A DNA stretch of 64,000 nt, taken from Escherichia phage P1. Where the stretch lies: sequence record AF234173.1, one strand, 5' to 3'. Shown here piece after piece: positions 17,303 to 32,220 of the stretch. How positions within the stretch are numbered: position 1 is the stretch's first letter; each line of letters opens with the position of its first letter. The position numbers and the translations under genes were made by a program. A model generated the notes under the pieces. That model had not been told where the DNA came from. It saw only the letters and a program-made list of their open reading frames with translations, and ran no database searches.

Positions 17303-20033
<2,731 letters not shown>

Positions 20034-20046
20034 CCACCAAAAATAA

Positions 20047-20064
20047 CCCCGGCAGCTGCCGGGG
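20047..20064 (+). terminator. Palindromic hairpin CCCCGGCAG/CTGCCGGGG after pro
   Basis: Perfect 9-bp GC-rich palindrome followed by TTCTCGTT. Confidence 0.45.
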
Positions 20065-20324
20065 TTCTCGTTAACTATTATCGCCTTCGCCTGCGTGCCA
20101 TATATTTGCGCACCGCGCGGCGTGGACAATCTGAAGCGGTTTCTTTCTGCTGCATCAATCTTGCAGCCATGCTCAAAAATGTCAGGCACAGCCGAAGCCC
20201 TGCATACAATAGCGGTTCCAGTGGCCACGTCTCATTGAGCACATATACCGCCATGAAAATCGAGTCGAAAACTATCGCCGCCAGCGATAACTTCATTGTC
20301 GAAAGTCGGCGGAGCTGCCGGAGT

Positions 20325-20882
20325 TTATTCATTGACCAGTCCCGTCAGGCAAAGCTGGCGTTCTTTTTCACGGCGAATCTTTAAACCTCGCAGGGGCACG
20401 CCGTTACTGTTCACGAAATCAGGGAGATGGTTACACATATTCACCCATTCCCCTTTCTGCGCCCACTTGTGGATGGACGTTTCGACTCGCATGCCTCGCG
20501 CTTTGCTGTAGTAGGTCCGTAAGCTATTGCATCCCATATTGAATGCCGCGCTTGTCATTGCGCTGAAGGCATTATCGGGCATGTCTTTGCCCCGGAAGTG
20601 CTGATTAATACAGCGTTCAGCGATCAGGATATTCTTTTCCCAATCAGCGGCGATTTGCTGGTCGGTTTTTCGCACACCCGGCGTTACCCCGTGTGTATTA
20701 CCGATCCCGTCAGTCCATACCCCCGCCGGGCACATGTATGGATCACGTCGGCAACCTTCAGCGTTACCAATCAGCTCAAGCCCCGCCTGGTTGGTTCGCA
20801 CATTGCCATTACCCATTACGATGGTAATCATCACCGCGATAGCGCAAATTGCACCGCCTCCTGCGGCTGTTTTTCCCTTCAT
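20325..20882 (-). CDS. lyz: Endolysin Lyz (T4-lysozyme fold with N-terminal SAR-type hydrophobic segment)
   Basis: 185-aa ORF; Gly/Ala-rich hydrophobic N-terminus (AICAIAVMITIVMG) followed by lysozyme-like body. Confidence 0.9.
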   Translation of the reverse strand: MKGKTAAGGGAICAIAVMITIVMGNGNVRTNQAGLELIGNAEGCRRDPYMCPAGVWTDGIGNTHGVTPGVRKTDQQIAADWEKNILIAERCINQHFRGKDMPDNAFSAMTSAAFNMGCNSLRTYYSKARGMRVETSIHKWAQKGEWVNMCNHLPDFVNSNGVPLRGLKIRREKERQLCLTGLVNE

Positions 20883-22531: not shown

Positions 22532-22640
22532 TTTTTACTAGAATAAAAAGGGGTGCCAGAGAGCACCCTGATAATACGAAATTAAAGGGAAATAAATTAC
22601 ATGAAGTGTAATTCTTTGCCCTCTGGGTAATGACTCAAAC

Positions 22641-23144
22641 TTATTGATAGTGTTTTATGTTCAGATAATGCCCGATGACTTTGTCATGCAGCTCCACCGA
22701 TTTTGAGAACGACAGCGACTTCCGTCCCAGCCGTGCCAGGTGCTGCCTCAGATTCAGGTTATGCCGCTCAATTCGCTGCGTATATCGCTTGCTGATTACG
22801 TGCAGCTTTCCCTTCAGGCGGGATTCATACAGCGGCCAGCCATCCGTCATCCATATCACCACGTCAAAGGGTGACAGCAGGCTCATAAGACGCCCCAGCG
22901 TCGCCATCGTGCGTTCACCGAATACGTGCGCAACAACCGTCTTCCGGAGCCTGTCATACGCGTAAAACAGCCAGCGCTGGCGCGATTTAGCCCCGACGTA
23001 TCCCCACTGTTCGTCCATTTCCGCGCAGACGATGACGTCACTGCCCGGCTGTATGCGCGAGGTTACCGACTGCGGCCTGAGTTTTTTAAATGGCGGAAAA
23101 TCGTGTTGAGGCCAACGCCCATAATGCGGGCGGTTGCCCGGCAT
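22641..23144 (-). CDS. insB: IS1 InsB (transposase part, expressed as InsAB' by frameshift)
   Basis: 167-aa ORF recognised as IS1 InsB. Confidence 0.9.
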
Positions 23145-23338
23145 CCAACGCCATTCATGGCCATATCAATGATTTTCTGGTGCGTACCGGGTTGAGAAGC
23201 GGTGTAAGTGAACTGCAGTTGCCATGTTTTACGGCAGTGAGAGCAGAGATAGCGCTGATGTCCGGCGGTGCTTTTGCCGTTACGCACCACCCCGTCAGTA
23301 GCTGAACAGGAGGGACAGCTGATAGAAACAGAAGCCAC
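23063..23338 (-). CDS. insA: IS1 InsA (transposition inhibitor)
   Basis: 91-aa ORF with zinc-finger CxxC..CxxC N-terminus, recognised as IS1 InsA. Confidence 0.9.
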
Positions 23339-23526
23339 TGGAGCACCTCAAAAACACCATCATACACTAAATCAGTAAGTTGGCAGCATCACCTGCCCTC
23401 TGAATATGCAATGATGGTTAGACAAGCAAGATAGGGCGAATTAAAATTAATCAAGAGTCACTTTGTTAAGATGCGTAACATCACTTTAACACTTTATGCT
23501 TGTCATGATATTTGCTTGGAAGCCTC

Positions 23527-24132: not shown

Positions 24133-24243
24133 TCTACTTTAATAGGAAATGGCTTGCTTCCATAACCTAAAGCAAGCCACTACACATTTACCTTAAGCAC
24201 ACGATAACATGCCAGAACAGGTTATTTTTGCACTATCAGGTAG

Positions 24244-24552
24244 TTAATATACTATCTGGTCTACATGATCACCAAAATCATCGTCGTCGTCCTCATCGCC
24301 ACCATCTACAACAGGCCAATCAACAAACCAGCCAGCGTAAAGATGCAGCGTTCGGAGAACATCACTTGCGGGAGCATCAAGGGTGTCAACGAATCCCATA
24401 TAGCTATTGGGATTTGCTCCAGCTATGGCTTCAGCGATCATGTCCTCGGTAATGTCACCGGAGATAATGCTTAAACGCCCGGAAACTTCTTCATTATCAT
24501 CAAATTCGATAATGGCATCTCCGCCTAATGGCGCTGCGATTTTAATCTGCAT
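24244..24552 (-). CDS. Small acidic protein at the distal end of the darA operon (possibly hxr)
   Basis: 102-aa ORF, ATG start, overlaps the ddrB stop by 11 nt; acidic tail DGGDEDDDDDFGD. Confidence 0.45.
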   Translation of the reverse strand: MQIKIAAPLGGDAIIEFDDNEEVSGRLSIISGDITEDMIAEAIAGANPNSYMGFVDTLDAPASDVLRTLHLYAGWFVDWPVVDGGDEDDDDDFGDHVDQIVY

Positions 24553-27529
24553 TATTTAGCTCCTTTGCCACACCTAATAACAGTTCCAGCAATCCGTCAC
24601 CATTCATCAGTGATGCGGCAGCGGCCTCTTTGTCATGATACAACTGAAGAGCCATAGAGAATACTTCCGTTGCTGACGTTTTGGAAATAGTCGGAGATTT
24701 CTGCCGAATTTTCCCGGTGTTACTTACTGAGGCTGGCGGGTATACCTTCGCCATATAAATATTACTCAATCGAGATCTGAAGCACCATTCAGGCTTGCCA
24801 CGCCCACCGATATTGACGAAAGATGGCTTATCCCCTTCAACATTGGCCTTCAGGAATGACCGGGCTTTCTCTAACAAACCAGGGTTACTGTACTCAAGAT
24901 GATGACCCAGCTCGTGCCACAGTGCACTTGCATTTTCATCGTTCAAATTGACAGCAACAACACCATTAAGATTTGCATATGCCCTTCCCTGGTGGTGAAC
25001 TACCTTTGATAAGGTCGATATTTTCCCGCCGGTCAGGCGATAAATATCAGCAAGTTCCTTGCGCAGGTCTATCCCACCATTCTGTCCAGCGCGGACTTCT
25101 TCCACTTCTTCTGTGATAAAAGAGTCGGCCCACTCAAGAGCTTTTTCTTCAGATACGTATGAGTTTGCGATCGCACTGTTCATGGCAGATAACACTTTCT
25201 CGTGGACCGAACCCATACTTCGCTGATTCATTTGCCAGCGTGTCTGCGGGTTATATGAGAATCGCTTAAGTAGTTGGTCAAGCTGCTCAAGTTCTTCTTC
25301 ACTGACATACTTTTTAGCCTCACCAATAATGCCAGGGAGAATATTGCCGTTAGGATTAAACGCTCGCGAAAGGAAGAGTTTCAGTACCCCCATGCCCTCC
25401 GATGCTTCAATATCACCAATAACCCGGTTAACAATGGCCGCACTCTTCGGATTAGCATCCGCCAACGCTCTGGCTACGATTTGCAGGGACGATACGACCT
25501 CACGCTGCATATCAGTCCTGATCTCATCAATAAACTCTGGCGTTATACCGTGCTCTTTAAGGATATCCCGGCCTTCCGCCGTTACCCCATCGATATCACC
25601 GACATGTTTATTAACACGACTTTGCAATGCCTTAAATGCCTTCAGAATTCCACGGGCATCATCCGCTTTACTAACGGCCTTCCTGAATGCTGTCAAGAAG
25701 TCTGAGTTAACCTCATTTTGTTGATCGGCCCACTGAATGGAGGCATCTTTCATCTCGTCCAGAGTCAGATCACCCAACGCGGTATGGTCTGTGAATATGA
25801 GCGACAACCTCTGAACCATTTCTGCCAATGATGATGCCGAATGCGCCGCGCTAAGGAATGCTTTCACCCTGGTTGGGCGAATGGAAAACCAGTCAATAGC
25901 TGGTGGCATATCTCCGTTTTTTATCGCCTGCGCTATCTCGTCAAAGCCATCGCGCCCAAGGGAGGATGCGTGATTTAACAAGCCGCGAAGTAACGAATTG
26001 CTGATACCGAATAATCGGCACCATTTTTTCACGTCGGCAACAGGCATTCGAACAAAATGCGCAAGCACTTGTACAAGCTGTTCATCATGGGGATCTGTAC
26101 GGGAAAGCAGCCTGATCAGATGAATAATGTCTTTGATGCCGGATGCCCGATGTAATAGCAAACTGGTATATGGAGCAACACCGTTGTAACTACCGCCGGA
26201 AACGGACTCGAAAAGACCGCCGGATATCCCTTGCATGCCTTCGTTTTCCAGTTCCTGAGACACCTGGCGAAGGATATCCTGTAACGACACATCGCCGCCG
26301 CCAAACATATCCCCCAGCGCCTGGCCCTGGTGCTGTAACTCATCATTGATACGTTGAGCCATCAACTTAAAGGCGGTGGCCATACGCTTCGCGCTACGGT
26401 TATTCGCGACGATGAACAACGCGAGTGCTTTCACTTCCGGGGCCGTTTCGCTGAACATATCCCCCTGAGCAATAACATCGGTAATATGCTGGCCTGACTC
26501 CTTCGATTGCCTTACCAGGTCTACCGCATCTTTCAATGCCGCCAGCGCCTTTTTATCGAGGCTATCCGCTGTCTCAATGCCATCAACAATAGTTGTCACA
26601 GCCTGCTTGTGCGCTTCTCCTGATAAAGCCTGCATCTGGACAAAATCATTGGCTGCCGCATTAAGCGCCGTCAGAACATTACGCATATCCGGATCAGGTT
26701 CTTCTGCAACCATCCTTACCAGGCGCGCATCCTTATATGCCTTGGCAAAGATCGCGTTTTGTATACGGTCTACAAGTTGCCGTGTTGGTCGCCCATCTTC
26801 AGTTACAAGGCCAGCCGCCTGTGTGGCACCAACTTGCGTCATAAATCCGCGAATAAACGCGTCATTACTGCGGCTAAGCAGATCTCCGCTTTCTGACGGG
26901 TTAAAAAGCGCCATCATCGCCGGTGTTATGCTGTCGGCATCAACAAAAGCCTTTTCACTGGCTGCCATTTCCTGAAGATCAGAAATATTTGAGTCCTTGG
27001 CAAACTGAACGCGGTCAACCTTAGTTAACCGGCGGCGCACCAGTACCGGAGCCGTCATTGATTCAACCTTTTCAGGAGGTATGCCGAATTCGGTCGCATG
27101 ATCAATCAGGTACTCACGATACCGATCCGCATTGCCGTCCTGATAGGCTTTGATGATCCCCATGGTCCGTCCATTACCTGACTCAACGGCATTGTCCTCA
27201 CCAATTATCGGCGCGCCATGGCTGGATAAACCGGAATCGGTAAGCTGGGCAGGACGCAAATCCTTGGATATCTGGTTGACCTGAAGAAGACTGGATGCGC
27301 GGGTCCGGTCGCGCGGCTGAAGTTCCTGGGGATAGTCAGGGTTAATTTTCCCGTCCAGAGTATTGGATACCAAAAGAGCCGAGGCATCGACGATATCAAA
27401 CGCTGTTTTTACCTCGTCACCCTTCGCTGTCACCACATACGAAACCCGCCCGAAATCGGGCAGGTTCTTTAGCAGCTCGATCAGCGTTTCTATGCTGGTG
27501 GCCATTACCACCTGATCGCTTAAGCTCAT
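24542..27529 (-). CDS. ddrB: DdrB, large head-internal antirestriction component
   Basis: 995-aa ORF immediately downstream of ddrA/darA in the same operon. Confidence 0.7.
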   Translation of the reverse strand: MSLSDQVVMATSIETLIELLKNLPDFGRVSYVVTAKGDEVKTAFDIVDASALLVSNTLDGKINPDYPQELQPRDRTRASSLLQVNQISKDLRPAQLTDSGLSSHGAPIIGEDNAVESGNGRTMGIIKAYQDGNADRYREYLIDHATEFGIPPEKVESMTAPVLVRRRLTKVDRVQFAKDSNISDLQEMAASEKAFVDADSITPAMMALFNPSESGDLLSRSNDAFIRGFMTQVGATQAAGLVTEDGRPTRQLVDRIQNAIFAKAYKDARLVRMVAEEPDPDMRNVLTALNAAANDFVQMQALSGEAHKQAVTTIVDGIETADSLDKKALAALKDAVDLVRQSKESGQHITDVIAQGDMFSETAPEVKALALFIVANNRSAKRMATAFKLMAQRINDELQHQGQALGDMFGGGDVSLQDILRQVSQELENEGMQGISGGLFESVSGGSYNGVAPYTSLLLHRASGIKDIIHLIRLLSRTDPHDEQLVQVLAHFVRMPVADVKKWCRLFGISNSLLRGLLNHASSLGRDGFDEIAQAIKNGDMPPAIDWFSIRPTRVKAFLSAAHSASSLAEMVQRLSLIFTDHTALGDLTLDEMKDASIQWADQQNEVNSDFLTAFRKAVSKADDARGILKAFKALQSRVNKHVGDIDGVTAEGRDILKEHGITPEFIDEIRTDMQREVVSSLQIVARALADANPKSAAIVNRVIGDIEASEGMGVLKLFLSRAFNPNGNILPGIIGEAKKYVSEEELEQLDQLLKRFSYNPQTRWQMNQRSMGSVHEKVLSAMNSAIANSYVSEEKALEWADSFITEEVEEVRAGQNGGIDLRKELADIYRLTGGKISTLSKVVHHQGRAYANLNGVVAVNLNDENASALWHELGHHLEYSNPGLLEKARSFLKANVEGDKPSFVNIGGRGKPEWCFRSRLSNIYMAKVYPPASVSNTGKIRQKSPTISKTSATEVFSMALQLYHDKEAAAASLMNGDGLLELLLGVAKELNNAD

Positions 27530-27541
27530 CCGTGTTACGCC

Positions 27542-27907
27542 TTATGCTGCCTCTTTAATGTTGGCGGCTATCCATGCCGCCGTGTGCTGTTTAACCTGGT
27601 CCAGGTCGATGTATATGCCAACATATTGACTCAAGTCCTGTAACGTACCGATAAATGCATCTGTGCTCTGATCGACGAATTTATCAGCCAGGAAATCAGC
27701 AACCAGTTTTGGCACACCATCATGTTCCGAAGGTTGTTTCTCCTCGCCACTACCGTCGCCAGACGCGCCGTACCCCATCTGTTGCATGATCTGGTCAATT
27801 TCATCGCTGATATCCAGCAACTCCATGCCACTCGCGGTAGCTGCTTTGGACATCAGAGCATCCAACTTATCGCTGAGGTCCATTAACTCAATAGCTGATA
27901 GTGTCAT
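27542..27907 (-). CDS. ddrA: DdrA, small acidic protein downstream of darA
   Basis: 121-aa ORF; start overlaps the darA stop (4-nt overlap). Confidence 0.55.
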   Translation of the reverse strand: MTLSAIELMDLSDKLDALMSKAATASGMELLDISDEIDQIMQQMGYGASGDGSGEEKQPSEHDGVPKLVADFLADKFVDQSTDAFIGTLQDLSQYVGIYIDLDQVKQHTAAWIAANIKEAA

Positions 27908-29823
27908 GCTGCTACCCCCGCTTTCTGGATTGCTACCAGCAGATCAGCCAGGTGGCGAGCTGCGCCATTAACCAGCTCTTCGTTTTCCTCAAAACGCCCG
28001 GCAGTCTGAAGGGCTGCAATCGCTTCCCGGACATTACCCCGGGCGTTACGGATCTCCGCCATGTCAGTGCTTTGCATATCCATCACGTTATTGAGATATT
28101 CAATGGCTTTATTAGCCTCTGCATCTGCTTCGCTAACCGTTTCATCAGGCTGTGCCGGGGCCGGTTCTGGCTGAGTAATCTCACCGACTTCGGCCTGCAA
28201 TGCATTGATCATGCTCTGCACCATTTTCTCGGTGCCAGCGCCACCCGGAAACGCAATATTGGGGAAAGTTTTTTGAAACTGAGTTTTCAGCATTACGCGG
28301 AACTCGTCTGGTGAGTTGGTGGCCAGCTCCAGAGCTTTTTGTGCATATTTGCCAAACGGACCATTAGTAAGTGTCTTCGCCAGGAAGTCGAAAGAATCCT
28401 CGCGAGGCAATAACTTCAGATCGTACTCACTCATTTGCTGATCAGAAAGCGGGGTATCGTAAGTAGCAATGCCGTAGCGTGCATATTCATAATACGGGTC
28501 ACCTTCATCAGGGCGCGGAAGAATTGCTTTGTTACCTTCAGGTATCGCGCCAGGGGCCGCCGGACGCATTTGCAGGGCATATCGATATGCACCTACAGAG
28601 ACTTCTGGTTCAGGCGAAGAGCTACCGGTATCCTCCGCTGATTCAGGTTCGACGTTTTCCGGTTTATGTTCTTCTGGTTGGACCAGATATTCCGATACAT
28701 TACCCGCTTTATAGGCTTTAAACAGCTTGCCGATCGCATCTGCCATGTCCACACCCTGTATGGATTTAGCCTTGATCATGTACACGCTGCCATCCGGATC
28801 GGTTAACTGGATATACCCTTCGCCATCCCCAATGAATTGCTTCATTGATGCACCATTACTGAGCGTCGCTTCCCCGTCCATATGCATACGATTTTTGATA
28901 CTGGCAAGGCGATCCGTCAGCGCGCGAGAGTGCCCACCAGTCATCCCCGCAGGGGCAATGGTATCGCGCCCACCAGTGCGATTGAGCCGATCAATCTCCC
29001 CCTGCAAACGCTCATTCTCTTCATAAAGGGAATCCGCTTCCGATGCAACAGCGTTAATTTTCTGCTCCAGATCTGCCTTCTGCCCTTCTACCGCTGCCAC
29101 CTGATCCGCGAGGTCGCTCATGGCATCCTCTTTCTGGTCACTGTCAGCCTGTAGTTGGGTTATTTCATCAACAAGGGCTTTTTTCTTCTTCTGCGCACGC
29201 TGGAATTTTGCCGAGTTTTTCTCTGCAAGGTTGGCAAGTTTCATGGTGACCTGCGCCAGCGTCATATCACGTCCACTCATCGGAGCAACTGTGTGAGTAA
29301 CGTCTTTTTTATTCAGTAAGAACTGGAAAGCAACCAGCGTATCGCTATTGGTGATCCGGTTTTCCGCTGTCGGGCTATGAAACAGAATGCTGATAGTCTG
29401 ACCATCACTGAGCGGAATAATGGCTGGCAAGACCGGCAGCCCGTTAACGTTACGTGCCCGGCCAATTTCAGCGCCGCCGATCGCGCGCGCGCCGCTCTGG
29501 GCCACATCCCCCGTTTTATCACTCCCCGCAGAGATTCCGGTACCATTCAGCTTCTGGTTCAATGCCCGGACAAATGCCTGCATGGTCCGGTGTAACTGCA
29601 AACGAGTAGAACTAATCGCCTCCAGTAAATCCGTAGCACACCAGTGGATCGGCGTGTCATAGAAGAACGTAGCCTCGATTTCCTCCAGGGTGTTGGATTC
29701 CGTCATCAGATAGCGGTCCTCACCGGCCATTAATGCGCGATATTCATCATCAGTCACTGGCGGGGGAAGCACGTCAAGCCCAGGCTTGATCGTCATCCCT
29801 TTATTGATATTGAACTGTTCCAT
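27904..29823 (-). CDS. darA: DarA antirestriction head-internal protein
   Basis: 639-aa ORF; central segment (PLSDGQTISILFH...EKNSAKFQRAQKKKK) paralogous to Hdf. Confidence 0.85.
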   Translation of the reverse strand: MEQFNINKGMTIKPGLDVLPPPVTDDEYRALMAGEDRYLMTESNTLEEIEATFFYDTPIHWCATDLLEAISSTRLQLHRTMQAFVRALNQKLNGTGISAGSDKTGDVAQSGARAIGGAEIGRARNVNGLPVLPAIIPLSDGQTISILFHSPTAENRITNSDTLVAFQFLLNKKDVTHTVAPMSGRDMTLAQVTMKLANLAEKNSAKFQRAQKKKKALVDEITQLQADSDQKEDAMSDLADQVAAVEGQKADLEQKINAVASEADSLYEENERLQGEIDRLNRTGGRDTIAPAGMTGGHSRALTDRLASIKNRMHMDGEATLSNGASMKQFIGDGEGYIQLTDPDGSVYMIKAKSIQGVDMADAIGKLFKAYKAGNVSEYLVQPEEHKPENVEPESAEDTGSSSPEPEVSVGAYRYALQMRPAAPGAIPEGNKAILPRPDEGDPYYEYARYGIATYDTPLSDQQMSEYDLKLLPREDSFDFLAKTLTNGPFGKYAQKALELATNSPDEFRVMLKTQFQKTFPNIAFPGGAGTEKMVQSMINALQAEVGEITQPEPAPAQPDETVSEADAEANKAIEYLNNVMDMQSTDMAEIRNARGNVREAIAALQTAGRFEENEELVNGAARHLADLLVAIQKAGVAA

Positions 29824-29824
29824 G

Positions 29825-30436
29825 TTAATTTCCTGCTTTCAGTTGCTTAAGACGACGTTTGAGTTCGCCATTCCGTGCCTTTTCGTTATTGAGTCGGCCC
29901 GTCTCCTTATCCAGCTTCGCCCGCAAATCAGTGATCTGCTGTTGATTGAAAGACACCGAATTCTGCGCGGACTTATAAGCGGCAACCACCTGAGCATTCC
30001 GCTGTTTTGCTTCTTGCAGGCGCTGAAAGTTGGATTTAACTGCCGGTTTCTTGTCTACCGGATTGGCAACACGTTTCGCTTTGGCGATCAGTGATTTCTG
30101 GAATTTTGCGGAGTTTTTGCGGGCCGCTTGCCCCATGACGGTACCAAGCGTCTTGATATCCGGCGACTGAGCGTTAGGAATAGCTTTTCCATTCAGCTTC
30201 ACAGACGATATATCGCCAGTATCGTTTACCTGTATGGCAAGAATTTGTCCGTCGCTAAGAACCAGCTTTGCGGTTTTAACTTTAACGCCATCTTTCGTTG
30301 TTGCGCGGTTGCTGGAGTCAACCTCAATTACCGTAACACCGGTTTTATTGATCGCCGTGATAAGGGATTTCAGCCCCTTTTCATTAACCTGGTCAAAATC
30401 GACCGTTGCATACTTATTTTTCGTCATCTGACACAT
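29825..30436 (-). CDS. hdf: Hdf, homolog of a DarA fragment
   Basis: 203-aa ORF; (VLSDGQILAIQV...RKNSAKFQKSLIAKAKR) aligns with the DarA central region. Confidence 0.7.
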   Translation of the reverse strand: MCQMTKNKYATVDFDQVNEKGLKSLITAINKTGVTVIEVDSSNRATTKDGVKVKTAKLVLSDGQILAIQVNDTGDISSVKLNGKAIPNAQSPDIKTLGTVMGQAARKNSAKFQKSLIAKAKRVANPVDKKPAVKSNFQRLQEAKQRNAQVVAAYKSAQNSVSFNQQQITDLRAKLDKETGRLNNEKARNGELKRRLKQLKAGN

Positions 30437-30857
30437 CCTGTGCGAGATTTATTACGTAACTGCTGCGGATTTGCTGAGTAACAGGGAAAATCCGATACAA
30501 CGGGTTAATGAACGAGTCGCCATGCGTAACCATGACGTTGAAATGCCACAGTCGCTCTCCTTTACCCATATATTCAGTGGGTATGTACAACCATTCACTG
30601 TTTTCGCCCTGTTCAGCCGACGCCAGACAACGTTGTTCGCCTTCAATCACTGTCGTCGGCTTCTGAACATCGCGGATCCAATATCTGACCGTTGCGCCGC
30701 GCAAAAACGGGAATTTAGACCGGTACTTGAACGGCACCCGGATGAAACCCGGTTTAATTTCCACATCACCAAGTTCTAAATGCGTGATGTCCTTGCGTTT
30801 TAGCAAATAGCGATCGGCTAAGGCTAACGCAAGAACGCATACACCCCAGCCAATCAT
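30414..30857 (-). CDS. lydB: LydB-like antiholin
   Basis: 147-aa ORF with N-terminal hydrophobic segment; 4-nt overlap with lydA. Confidence 0.55.
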   Translation of the reverse strand: MIGWGVCVLALALADRYLLKRKDITHLELGDVEIKPGFIRVPFKYRSKFPFLRGATVRYWIRDVQKPTTVIEGEQRCLASAEQGENSEWLYIPTEYMGKGERLWHFNVMVTHGDSFINPLYRIFPVTQQIRSSYVINLAQDVSDDEK

Positions 30858-31183
30858 TTCCCGCCTCCCTTTTTCACCAAACTTGTAAGAACATTCAGAA
30901 TGCTATCGATATTCACTCGTTTCATCCCTGAAATCACCTCATGACCGTTATTGCTGGCTATCGTTACCATTAAGTACGTAATTGATAACTCCCAGCCCTC
31001 GTGTTGCCCCAATAGGTACGCCACCGCGCCAGCTGTCACTGCAACAAAGATCTCCGTAACCAATCCCAACAAATTGCCAGACTGGCGACCGTCTCGGACA
31101 TCCATCAGGAACGTGCCTATCCCACCAATTACTGAAAGCAGGAGCGCAATAGCAACTGGAGCTAATTCCTGTGTGTCAAGCAC
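30854..31183 (-). CDS. lydA: LydA-like holin
   Basis: 109-aa ORF with hydrophobic transmembrane-like segments and a charged C-terminus. Confidence 0.6.
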   Translation of the reverse strand: MLDTQELAPVAIALLLSVIGGIGTFLMDVRDGRQSGNLLGLVTEIFVAVTAGAVAYLLGQHEGWELSITYLMVTIASNNGHEVISGMKRVNIDSILNVLTSLVKKGGGK

Positions 31184-31250
31184 AAGTTCCCTCCTACGTT
31201 GTCAGGAGGTAATGGTATGCAAAGTAACTTCTCAACCGGTCATTTGTTGC

Positions 31251-31532
31251 TTAAGAGGCATTTCTATTGAGGTACGAATCAATAATCCTTTGTAACTTTT
31301 CAAGAATGAGCCTGTTATTGATGCTGCAAATAATAGTCACGCAATTCTGAAGACTTTCATCCATACCCTTATATTCCGCGAAATACATGCCTATAAAGCC
31401 TGCAAGTACGGCAGCAATACACTCGGCCATCAATTGCCTGCATGACGCTTCGTAACGTTTTTCACAAACCCCATTCAGAAACGAATGCACCCCGCCAAGG
31501 ATGGAGAGGAGCATTATTGTGAAATCACACAT
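31251..31532 (-). CDS. Second holin-like small membrane protein (possibly lydC)
   Basis: 93-aa ORF with two hydrophobic segments, first gene of the operon. Confidence 0.45.
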   Translation of the reverse strand: MCDFTIMLLSILGGVHSFLNGVCEKRYEASCRQLMAECIAAVLAGFIGMYFAEYKGMDESLQNCVTIICSINNRLILEKLQRIIDSYLNRNAS

Positions 31533-31659
31533 AACTATTTCCTTAATAGTGAATTAAATATCATTGGGAAACGGTATGTACTTTGTGATTTCCACACATA
31601 CTGGTTTTTGTTAATTAAAATCCGCAGCTTGCTATAAATAACGATAGTGAGCAGAAAAT

Positions 31660-32220
31660 ATGCTAATAGGCTATGTACGCGTATCAACAAATGAACAAAA
31701 CACTGCTTTACAACGAAACGCTCTTGAAAGCGCAGGATGTGAGCTAATTTTTGAGGACAAGGCGAGCGGCAAAAAGGCTGAGCGCCCTGGGTTAAAAAAG
31801 GTACTCCGTATGCTTTCCAGAGGTGATACCCTGGTCGTATGGAAGTTAGACCGTCTTGGGCGCAGCATGCGTCACTTAGTTGTGCTGGTGGAAGAGCTGC
31901 GTGACAGAGGCATTAACTTCCGGAGTCTCACTGACTCCATCGACACCAGTACACCAATGGGGCGCTTTTTCTTTCACGTAATGGGGGCGCTGGCAGAAAT
32001 GGAACGTGAGCTTATCGTTGAACGTACACGCGCTGGACTTGATGCAGCTCGCGCAGAAGGTCGTATAGGTGGGCGTCGGCCTAAATACCAAGAAGAAACA
32101 TGGCAGCAAATGCGGCGATTGCTGGAGAAGGGCATCCCCCGTAAGCAGGTTGCAATCATCTATGATGTGGCTGTTTCCACGCTTTATAAGAAGTTTCCGG
32201 CGTCATCATTTCAATCCTAA
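31660..32220 (+). CDS. cin: Cin serine DNA invertase (Hin/Gin/Cin family)
   Basis: 186-aa ORF, MLIGYVRVSTNEQ... with catalytic Ser; stop codon lies inside cixL. Confidence 0.97.
   Translation: MLIGYVRVSTNEQNTALQRNALESAGCELIFEDKASGKKAERPGLKKVLRMLSRGDTLVVWKLDRLGRSMRHLVVLVEELRDRGINFRSLTDSIDTSTPMGRFFFHVMGALAEMERELIVERTRAGLDAARAEGRIGGRRPKYQEETWQQMRRLLEKGIPRKQVAIIYDVAVSTLYKKFPASSFQS

Follow-up and report, generated by a model that had tools for sequence, protein, structure and literature searches.

We analyzed a 64,000-nt stretch of Escherichia phage P1 DNA (sequence record AF234173.1; hereafter the window) and, within it, the 7289-nt region 24244–31532, which carries the dar operon of the phage and the adjoining holin gene lydC. 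The region is 100% identical to bacteriophage P1 mod749::IS5 c1.100 (AF234172 / NC_005856), with exactly matching coordinates. It is likewise identical to AJ000741, the 1998 GenBank record 'Bacteriophage P1 darA operon', in which the genes begin at lydA. An initial annotation, made from the sequence alone, had listed eight minus-strand open reading frames (ORFs) in this region; the ORF list and the P1 annotation agree with it, and all eight are annotated P1 genes with exactly the lengths and bounds proposed (Table 1). The locus almost certainly comprises the holin gene lydC of P1 and, after it, the late dar operon, in the order LPdar-lydA-lydB-hdf-darA-ddrA-ddrB-hxr-terminator, with Hdf and DarA as paralogous products, and no evidence contradicts this identification. 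The present analysis establishes which locus this is, that Hdf and DarA are paralogous, where their domains lie, where promoter and terminator are placed and that synteny is conserved; the functions in lysis, assembly and anti-restriction are drawn from the literature (PMC9025707, PMC12810830, PMC9024508, PMC5512222).

Table 1. Features of the P1 dar locus and of the unlinked lyz operon, with positions in the window.
Feature	Position	Strand	Description
lydC	31251-31532	-	93 aa; holin paralogous to LydA; separate unit upstream of the dar operon promoter
LPdar, P1 late promoter	31212-31230	-	annotated; marks the start of the dar operon
lydA	30854-31183	-	109-aa holin, GTG start; first gene of the operon
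lydB	30414-30857	-	147 aa; LydA antagonist (antiholin)
hdf	29825-30436	-	203 aa, basic, isoelectric point (pI) 10.2; head-internal; DarA paralogue
DarA_N domain of Hdf (residues 13-109)	30110-30400	-	Pfam PF18788, E = 3e-22
Hdf C-terminal long helix (residues 135-203, net charge +9)	29828-30034	-	hhalign collinearity; helix in the AlphaFold2 model
darA	27904-29823	-	639 aa, acidic, head-internal, defence against restriction; NCBIfam anti_RE_DarA, 1089 bits
DarA_N domain of DarA (residues 66-204)	29212-29628	-	Pfam PF18788, E = 4e-42; paralogous to the Hdf N-domain
DarA alpha-helical (coiled-coil) domain (~residues 205-287)	28963-29211	-	positional homologue of the Hdf helix
ddrA	27542-27907	-	121-aa acidic virion protein; phrog_1855
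ddrB	24542-27529	-	995 aa; N-terminal DdrB-type ParB domain, C-terminal HExxH
hxr	24244-24552	-	102 aa, very acidic; last gene of the operon
dar operon terminator	24148-24181	-	13-bp hairpin then UUUCCUAUU; convergent with isaB
lyz operon, unlinked	20013-20882	-	lyz SAR-endolysin 20325-20882; lydD pinholin 20078-20332; lydE putative antiholin 20013-20228

The operon has a recognizable start, a tightly packed body and a strong end. The annotated late promoter LPdar consists of a -22 box (AAGTTACTT), an N4 spacing and the -10 element TACCAT, and it lies inside the 67-nt spacer between lydC and lydA. Its motif has 16 matches in the window against 4.8 expected, among them LPlyz and other annotated or likely late promoters. 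Within the operon, lydA/lydB and darA/ddrA are joined by 4-nt ATGA overlaps, lydB/hdf by a 23-nt overlap and ddrB/hxr by an 11-nt overlap, and spacers of 1 nt and 12 nt separate hdf from darA and ddrA from ddrB. The 4-nt overlaps that had been attributed to many genes thus occur at just two of the six operon junctions. Downstream of hxr, the 111-nt stretch 24133–24243 folds as RNA with -35 kcal/mol (z = -4.1; no shuffle was as stable), and the hairpin in it lies inside the terminator annotated in AJ000741. A generic terminator scan missed this site because its tail is not a clean run of T, and folding recovered it. An annotated LPdar, genes packed closely together and a strong hairpin downstream of hxr all fit a single transcript that carries lydA and lydB along with the genes for the packaged Dar proteins. 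The initial annotation had proposed that lysis-timing and anti-restriction genes are co-transcribed; these features and the literature bear this out for lydA and lydB but not for lydC.

Hdf and DarA are paralogues. The name hdf presumably stands for 'homolog of DarA fragment'. BLASTP aligned Hdf 29–115 with DarA 107–210 (30% identity over 105 aa, E = 3e-4), and Smith-Waterman alignment of the two proteins scored 91 (z = 7.1), a value reached by none of 1000 shuffles. The two segments from which the relationship had first been read were both located, LSDGQ at Hdf 60–64 and DarA 138–142, and KNSAKFQ at Hdf 107–113 and DarA 202–208. Pfam DarA_N (PF18788; gathering threshold 27 bits) matched Hdf 13–109 with 79.2 bits and DarA 66–204 with 143.4 bits. 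When family alignments of 15 Hdf and 18 DarA sequences were compared by hhalign, Hdf 43–203 paired with DarA 121–284 across 147 columns (probability 96.7%, E = 3.7e-10). The initial annotation had made the duplication hinge on a significant alignment of Hdf with DarA, and BLASTP, Smith-Waterman and hhalign each return one. In a set of 32 Hdf and DarA sequences, conservation reaches 80% or more in the D-GQ and LN columns; the LN motif reads LNGK in Hdf and LNKK in DarA. These motifs fit the conserved Asp and the NX+ (Asn-x-basic) motif described for DarA-N (PMC5512222).

Structure prediction, which had been suggested as a check, led to the same protein. In the AlphaFold2 model of Hdf (predicted local distance difference test score, 82), a small alpha+beta domain precedes helices spanning residues 94–124 and 136–200. 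A Foldseek search of the PDB with this model returned only two matches at E ≤ 0.001, both of them DarA chains from P1 cryo-electron microscopy (cryo-EM) structures (9vz0_I and 9ukm_I; E ~4e-6, probability 1.00, 201–221 aligned columns). The DarA sequence analyzed here is that of PDB 9ukm chain I and the Hdf sequence that of 9ukm chain H, and both proteins are also present in 9vz0. The shared part is the N-terminal domain of DarA together with the helix that follows it, approximately residues 66–287 of 639, rather than the 'central region' of DarA to which it had been assigned.

The two families are distinct and lie side by side. A joint alignment of Hdf and DarA sequences split cleanly into two clades, with identity of at least 33% within a family and of 12–23% between families, and D-GQ and LN are among the few columns conserved in both. 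In every P1-like element examined, hdf lies next to darA, and the two genes are separated or overlap by no more than 10 nt. This holds for the distant P1-like plasmid prophages L003 (Plesiomonas), L004 (from GCA_000307305.1), L005 and L006 (both from E. coli or metagenomes), in which Hdf is 36–42% identical to P1 Hdf, and the duplication therefore predates the divergence of these elements. The collinearity of Hdf with DarA 121–284 and the two clean clades found next to each other in every such element support the partial gene duplication inside the operon that the initial annotation had proposed, and a duplication of this kind is the probable source of hdf.

The part that follows the DarA_N domain connects this history with the capsid. 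In the published structure, DarA and Hdf form a parallel helix bundle held by complementary electrostatics (PMC12810830). The aligned helices carry opposite net charges, +9 in Hdf 135–203 and -12 in DarA 216–284. Helices that pair from homologous positions with opposite charge are what would be expected of a heterodimer derived from a homodimer. We infer that DarA-Hdf is a heterodimer of paralogues that descended from an ancestral homodimer via tandem duplication.

Two other explanations of the likeness between Hdf and DarA were weighed. Both proteins have long helical, charge-rich segments, and DarA weakly matches many coiled-coil families, as would be seen if the similarity were an artefact of coiled-coil or lysine-rich composition. 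However, the non-helical N-domains alone, with the helical tails removed, again gave z = 7.1 with none of 1000 shuffles as good, so the similarity is not one of coiled-coil composition. Both proteins also pass the curated DarA_N threshold widely, and DarA was the sole significant match of Hdf in the structure search. Composition as the source of the similarity is therefore ruled out, and we give it practically no weight. A more serious alternative accepts the homology and holds that Hdf is an independently acquired DarA_N-domain gene, the domain having been shuffled among phage polyvalent proteins, which came to lie next to darA later. DarA_N is indeed described as a module of polyvalent proteins (PMC5512222), and the proteins that contain it measure 387 to >1100 aa and vary in their C-terminal parts. 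Yet the homology runs through DarA_N and the following helix in the same order, the close adjacency or overlap of the two genes recurs in every element examined, and each family is monophyletic in the joint tree. Independent acquisition appears improbable on this evidence, and we prefer duplication of darA within the operon.

The upstream limit of the operon required separate consideration. LydC and LydA both match PF16083 (Phage_holin_3_3; threshold 28.4 bits) with 30.4 and 30.1 bits, respectively (E = 4e-7 for LydC), and each has two hydrophobic helices with Kyte-Doolittle peaks of at least 1.6, which in LydA span residues 9–27 and 38–56. The description of both as small holin-like membrane proteins was therefore correct, and the two are clearly related (Smith-Waterman z = 19.8). 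The accompanying statement that the operon starts with both genes was not. LPdar lies between lydC and lydA, and the operon therefore starts at lydA and has one holin gene and its antagonist at its head, rather than a pair of holin genes; lydC stands outside the dar operon as a separate cassette that can be exchanged. Between P1 and phage P7, sequence identity resumes just upstream of the LPdar -22 box and is perfect into lydA, and the two phages are also identical within cin. The lydC cassette in which P7 differs from P1, together with its upstream region (window ~31240–31650; L007 8498–8900), is replaced between the two phages, with 30% aa identity. lydC was not found in the four distant P1-like elements L003–L006. 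Upstream of lydC, the C1 operator annotated there in P7 has no P1 match within 3 mismatches near 31533–31660. A generic sigma-70 scan gave fewer sites than chance and, for lydC, nothing useful besides a 9/12 match at 31687–31660. In the literature, lydC is described as monocistronic with a predicted early promoter (Bednarek 2022, PMC9025707).

It could be argued that lydC is nevertheless the true first gene of the operon and that transcription from upstream reads through into lydA-hxr. The gene is on the same strand, just 67 nt from lydA, and the generic terminator scan detected no terminator-like site between the two. Against this stand the position of LPdar within that spacer, the start of the genes at lydA in AJ000741 and the published monocistronic description with its predicted early promoter. 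The cassette is moreover replaced in P7, whose sequence is identical from the LPdar -22 box on, and it is absent from four distant elements that keep lydA-lydB-hdf-darA. A weaker point is that CRISPR interference (CRISPRi) on lydC had no plating effect, unlike lydB knock-down. A dar operon headed by lydC is accordingly an unlikely reading, and we place the start at lydA. Several points weigh against our overall account. Pairwise identity between Hdf and DarA is low (19–30%), and the global template-modelling scores of the Hdf model against DarA structures are 0.32–0.46, low values that arise from a difference in the orientation of the long helices. A tandem origin of hdf in situ is deduced from adjacency and collinearity, and co-transcription is taken from the annotation and the cited papers.

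Turning to the remaining lysis genes, LydB matches PF16084 over residues 1–147 (E = 3.7e-105). It had been called a membrane protein, which is a tentative label: a single borderline hydrophobic peak is present (Kyte-Doolittle 1.62, residues 1–19), its hydrophobic core comprises just ~13 residues, and the literature gives no predicted transmembrane domain (PMC9025707). The same work classes LydA and LydC as canonical holins that form holes giving a cytoplasmic endolysin access to the wall, LydD as a pinholin, LydB as the antagonist of LydA, and Lyz as a signal-anchor-release (SAR) endolysin; it terms the unlinked arrangement of the lysis genes atypical and conserved in Punavirus (PMC9025707). 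The endolysin gene had been correctly placed at 20.3–20.9 kb, where lyz is annotated. The initial annotation recognized the lysis genes in the region but missed the pinholin gene lydD and the putative antiholin gene lydE that adjoin lyz. In published CRISPRi experiments, knock-down of lydB cut plating to ~2e-2, and lydA, lydC and all dar genes were scored non-essential. The plating loss fits premature lysis when the antiholin is lost.

The Dar proteins are characterized by their domains and by their presence in the virion. DdrB carries PF18763 (DdrB-like ParB domain) at residues 36–167 (E = 2e-39) and an HExxH motif, HELGH, at residue 872. Its peptidase domain had no Pfam match; Iyer 2017 assigned the HExxH to an autoprocessing metallopeptidase (MPTase) domain (PMC5512222). 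NCBIfam named no product of the region except DarA. DdrA and Hxr had been described as acidic, and both indeed have a pI of 4.05. Hdf, DarA, DdrA and DdrB are present in the virion proteome (PMC9024508). Cryo-EM located 55 DarA-Hdf pairs at penton-hexon junctions, contacting DNA (Zheng 2026, PMC12810830). When hdf or darA is deleted, the virion loses every other Dar protein and head size shifts towards small; the Dar proteins, which are packaged in the head, counter type I restriction in cis (PMC12810830).

Hxr, the product of the last operon gene, is annotated in P1 as 'possible repressor; homolog of Xre'. Of its residues, 24 are acidic and 3 basic; neither Pfam nor NCBIfam gave a match, it has no helix-turn-helix (HTH) signature, and its predicted fold is alpha/beta, for which no structural neighbour was found. 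An Xre-family HTH repressor would be expected to have an HTH domain or all-helical fold and a basic DNA-binding character, and this extremely acidic composition, the lack of an HTH and the alpha/beta predicted fold do not support the Xre-like annotation. An exhaustive search of 1.84 billion proteins yielded 19 cluster representatives as Hxr homologues, and a k-mer search gave only close relatives. Wherever a relative was found, three short metagenomic contigs included, the start of the hxr-like gene falls within the 3' end of a ddrB-like gene, and in the closer relatives the overlap has the same length as in P1. This 11-nt overlap of P1 (24542–24552) recurs in these contigs at L008 106–116, L009 204–214 and L010 98–108, although their Hxr is just 37–40% identical; the fragment upstream is recognizably the DdrB C-terminus. 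hxr is non-essential by published CRISPRi knock-down, and the virion proteome paper does not mention Hxr (PMC9024508). Because the hxr-like gene starts within the ddrB 3' end wherever it was found, and its product has a fold without a known counterpart, we offer the guess that Hxr works with DdrB in the Dar system, perhaps as a chaperone of the DdrB C-terminal metallopeptidase or as an inhibitor of it, or else is an acidic anti-restriction factor. We regard this as a doubtful but not far-fetched suggestion.

Some further features were noted at the locus. The 132-aa ORF iddB (26577–26975, plus strand) is annotated antisense inside ddrB, was scored non-essential by CRISPRi and is without supporting evidence. 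For the darA portion 28198–28586, the P1 annotation records 95% identity to part of ATMET11 (X77335). At the downstream end, isaB is convergent with hxr, and the hairpin region is common to both. A copy of insertion sequence IS1 (insA, insB) occupies 22626–23393, between isaA and isaB, just past the dar operon terminator.

Taken with the published work, the locus suggests the following course of events. During late lytic growth, the phage-specific late promoter LPdar would drive a single transcript. From it, the holin LydA and its antagonist LydB would be made to time lysis in concert with the unlinked SAR-endolysin Lyz and pinholin LydD and with LydC, which is expressed separately, and the same transcript would supply the head-internal Dar proteins. 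Hdf represents the short basic copy and DarA the long acidic copy with extra C-terminal domains, each with a DarA_N alpha+beta domain and a long helix. According to the published cryo-EM, the homologous helices pair in parallel by complementary charge, and the DarA-Hdf pairs lie on the inner capsid surface at penton-hexon junctions, touching DNA. Published genetics indicates that Hdf and DarA are both needed for normal head size and for loading of DdrA, DdrB, Ulx and DarB, and that the Dar proteins are ejected with the DNA, protecting it in cis from type I restriction.

This locus is among the best-described parts of phage P1, and both points of the initial annotation are already in the literature and databases. 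Iyer et al. wrote in 2017 that Hdf is homologous to the N-terminal domain of DarA (PMC5512222), and Pfam, PHROG and NCBI carry the link in their product names ('defense against restriction DarA-related protein', 'Hdf-like antirestriction'). That Hdf is related to DarA and that lysis genes are paired with anti-restriction genes is correct and already known (Iyer 2017; Bednarek 2022; Zheng 2026, PDB 9ukm). What the present analysis fixes are boundaries, with the operon starting at lydA and the paralogy covering the N-domain and a helix. In addition, it connects the homology seen in the sequences with the published structure of the heterodimer, in which the helices that pair in the capsid occupy homologous positions and bear opposite charge.

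Compared with its relatives, the operon is well conserved. P7 (AF503408), SJ46, RCS47, JL22, phi456 and other Punavirus members are 97–98% identical to P1 in nucleotide sequence across lydA-hxr. The gene order of P7 and the other Punavirus dar operons is as in P1, under the P7 names odaE for hdf, odaC for ddrA, prt for ddrB and odaA for hxr; some Punavirus relatives differ in having an IS200/IS605 (insQ) insertion within the operon. The distant prophages L003–L006 also have the order lydA-lydB-hdf-darA-ddrA-ddrB-hxr-like, but they are without lydC, and their DarA is shorter (387–504 aa) with no DarA_C match. In L005 and L006 (11549–14721) the operon is split, with five opposite-strand genes, including one for a DnaB-type helicase, between ddrA and ddrB-hxr. 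DarA relatives range from 387 to >1100 aa (for example L003 9627–10790, L004 9626–11131, L005 9617–11131 and proteins P0114–P0170). All have DarA_N, and many lack DarA_C or have other C-terminal parts, the C-terminal half being the variable part. The gene order kept in distant elements shows that the linkage of holin and antiholin genes to Dar genes is old within P1-like elements. This linkage could reflect function or mere inheritance of late-gene order, and nothing found here separates the two.

Two known systems place these findings. Hdf and DarA both belong to the Pfam DarA_N family (PF18788; Iyer 2017), and in P1 the collinear similarity runs past the Pfam domain into the long helix. In the lambda-type lysis cassette, holin, antiholin, endolysin and spanins are encoded in one operon. 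P1 likewise has an adjacent holin gene and antagonist gene, lydA and lydB, translationally coupled by their 4-nt overlap. In contrast to the lambda-type cassette, the endolysin and pinholin genes of P1 lie ~10 kb away, and its holin-antiholin pair heads an operon for head-internal proteins.

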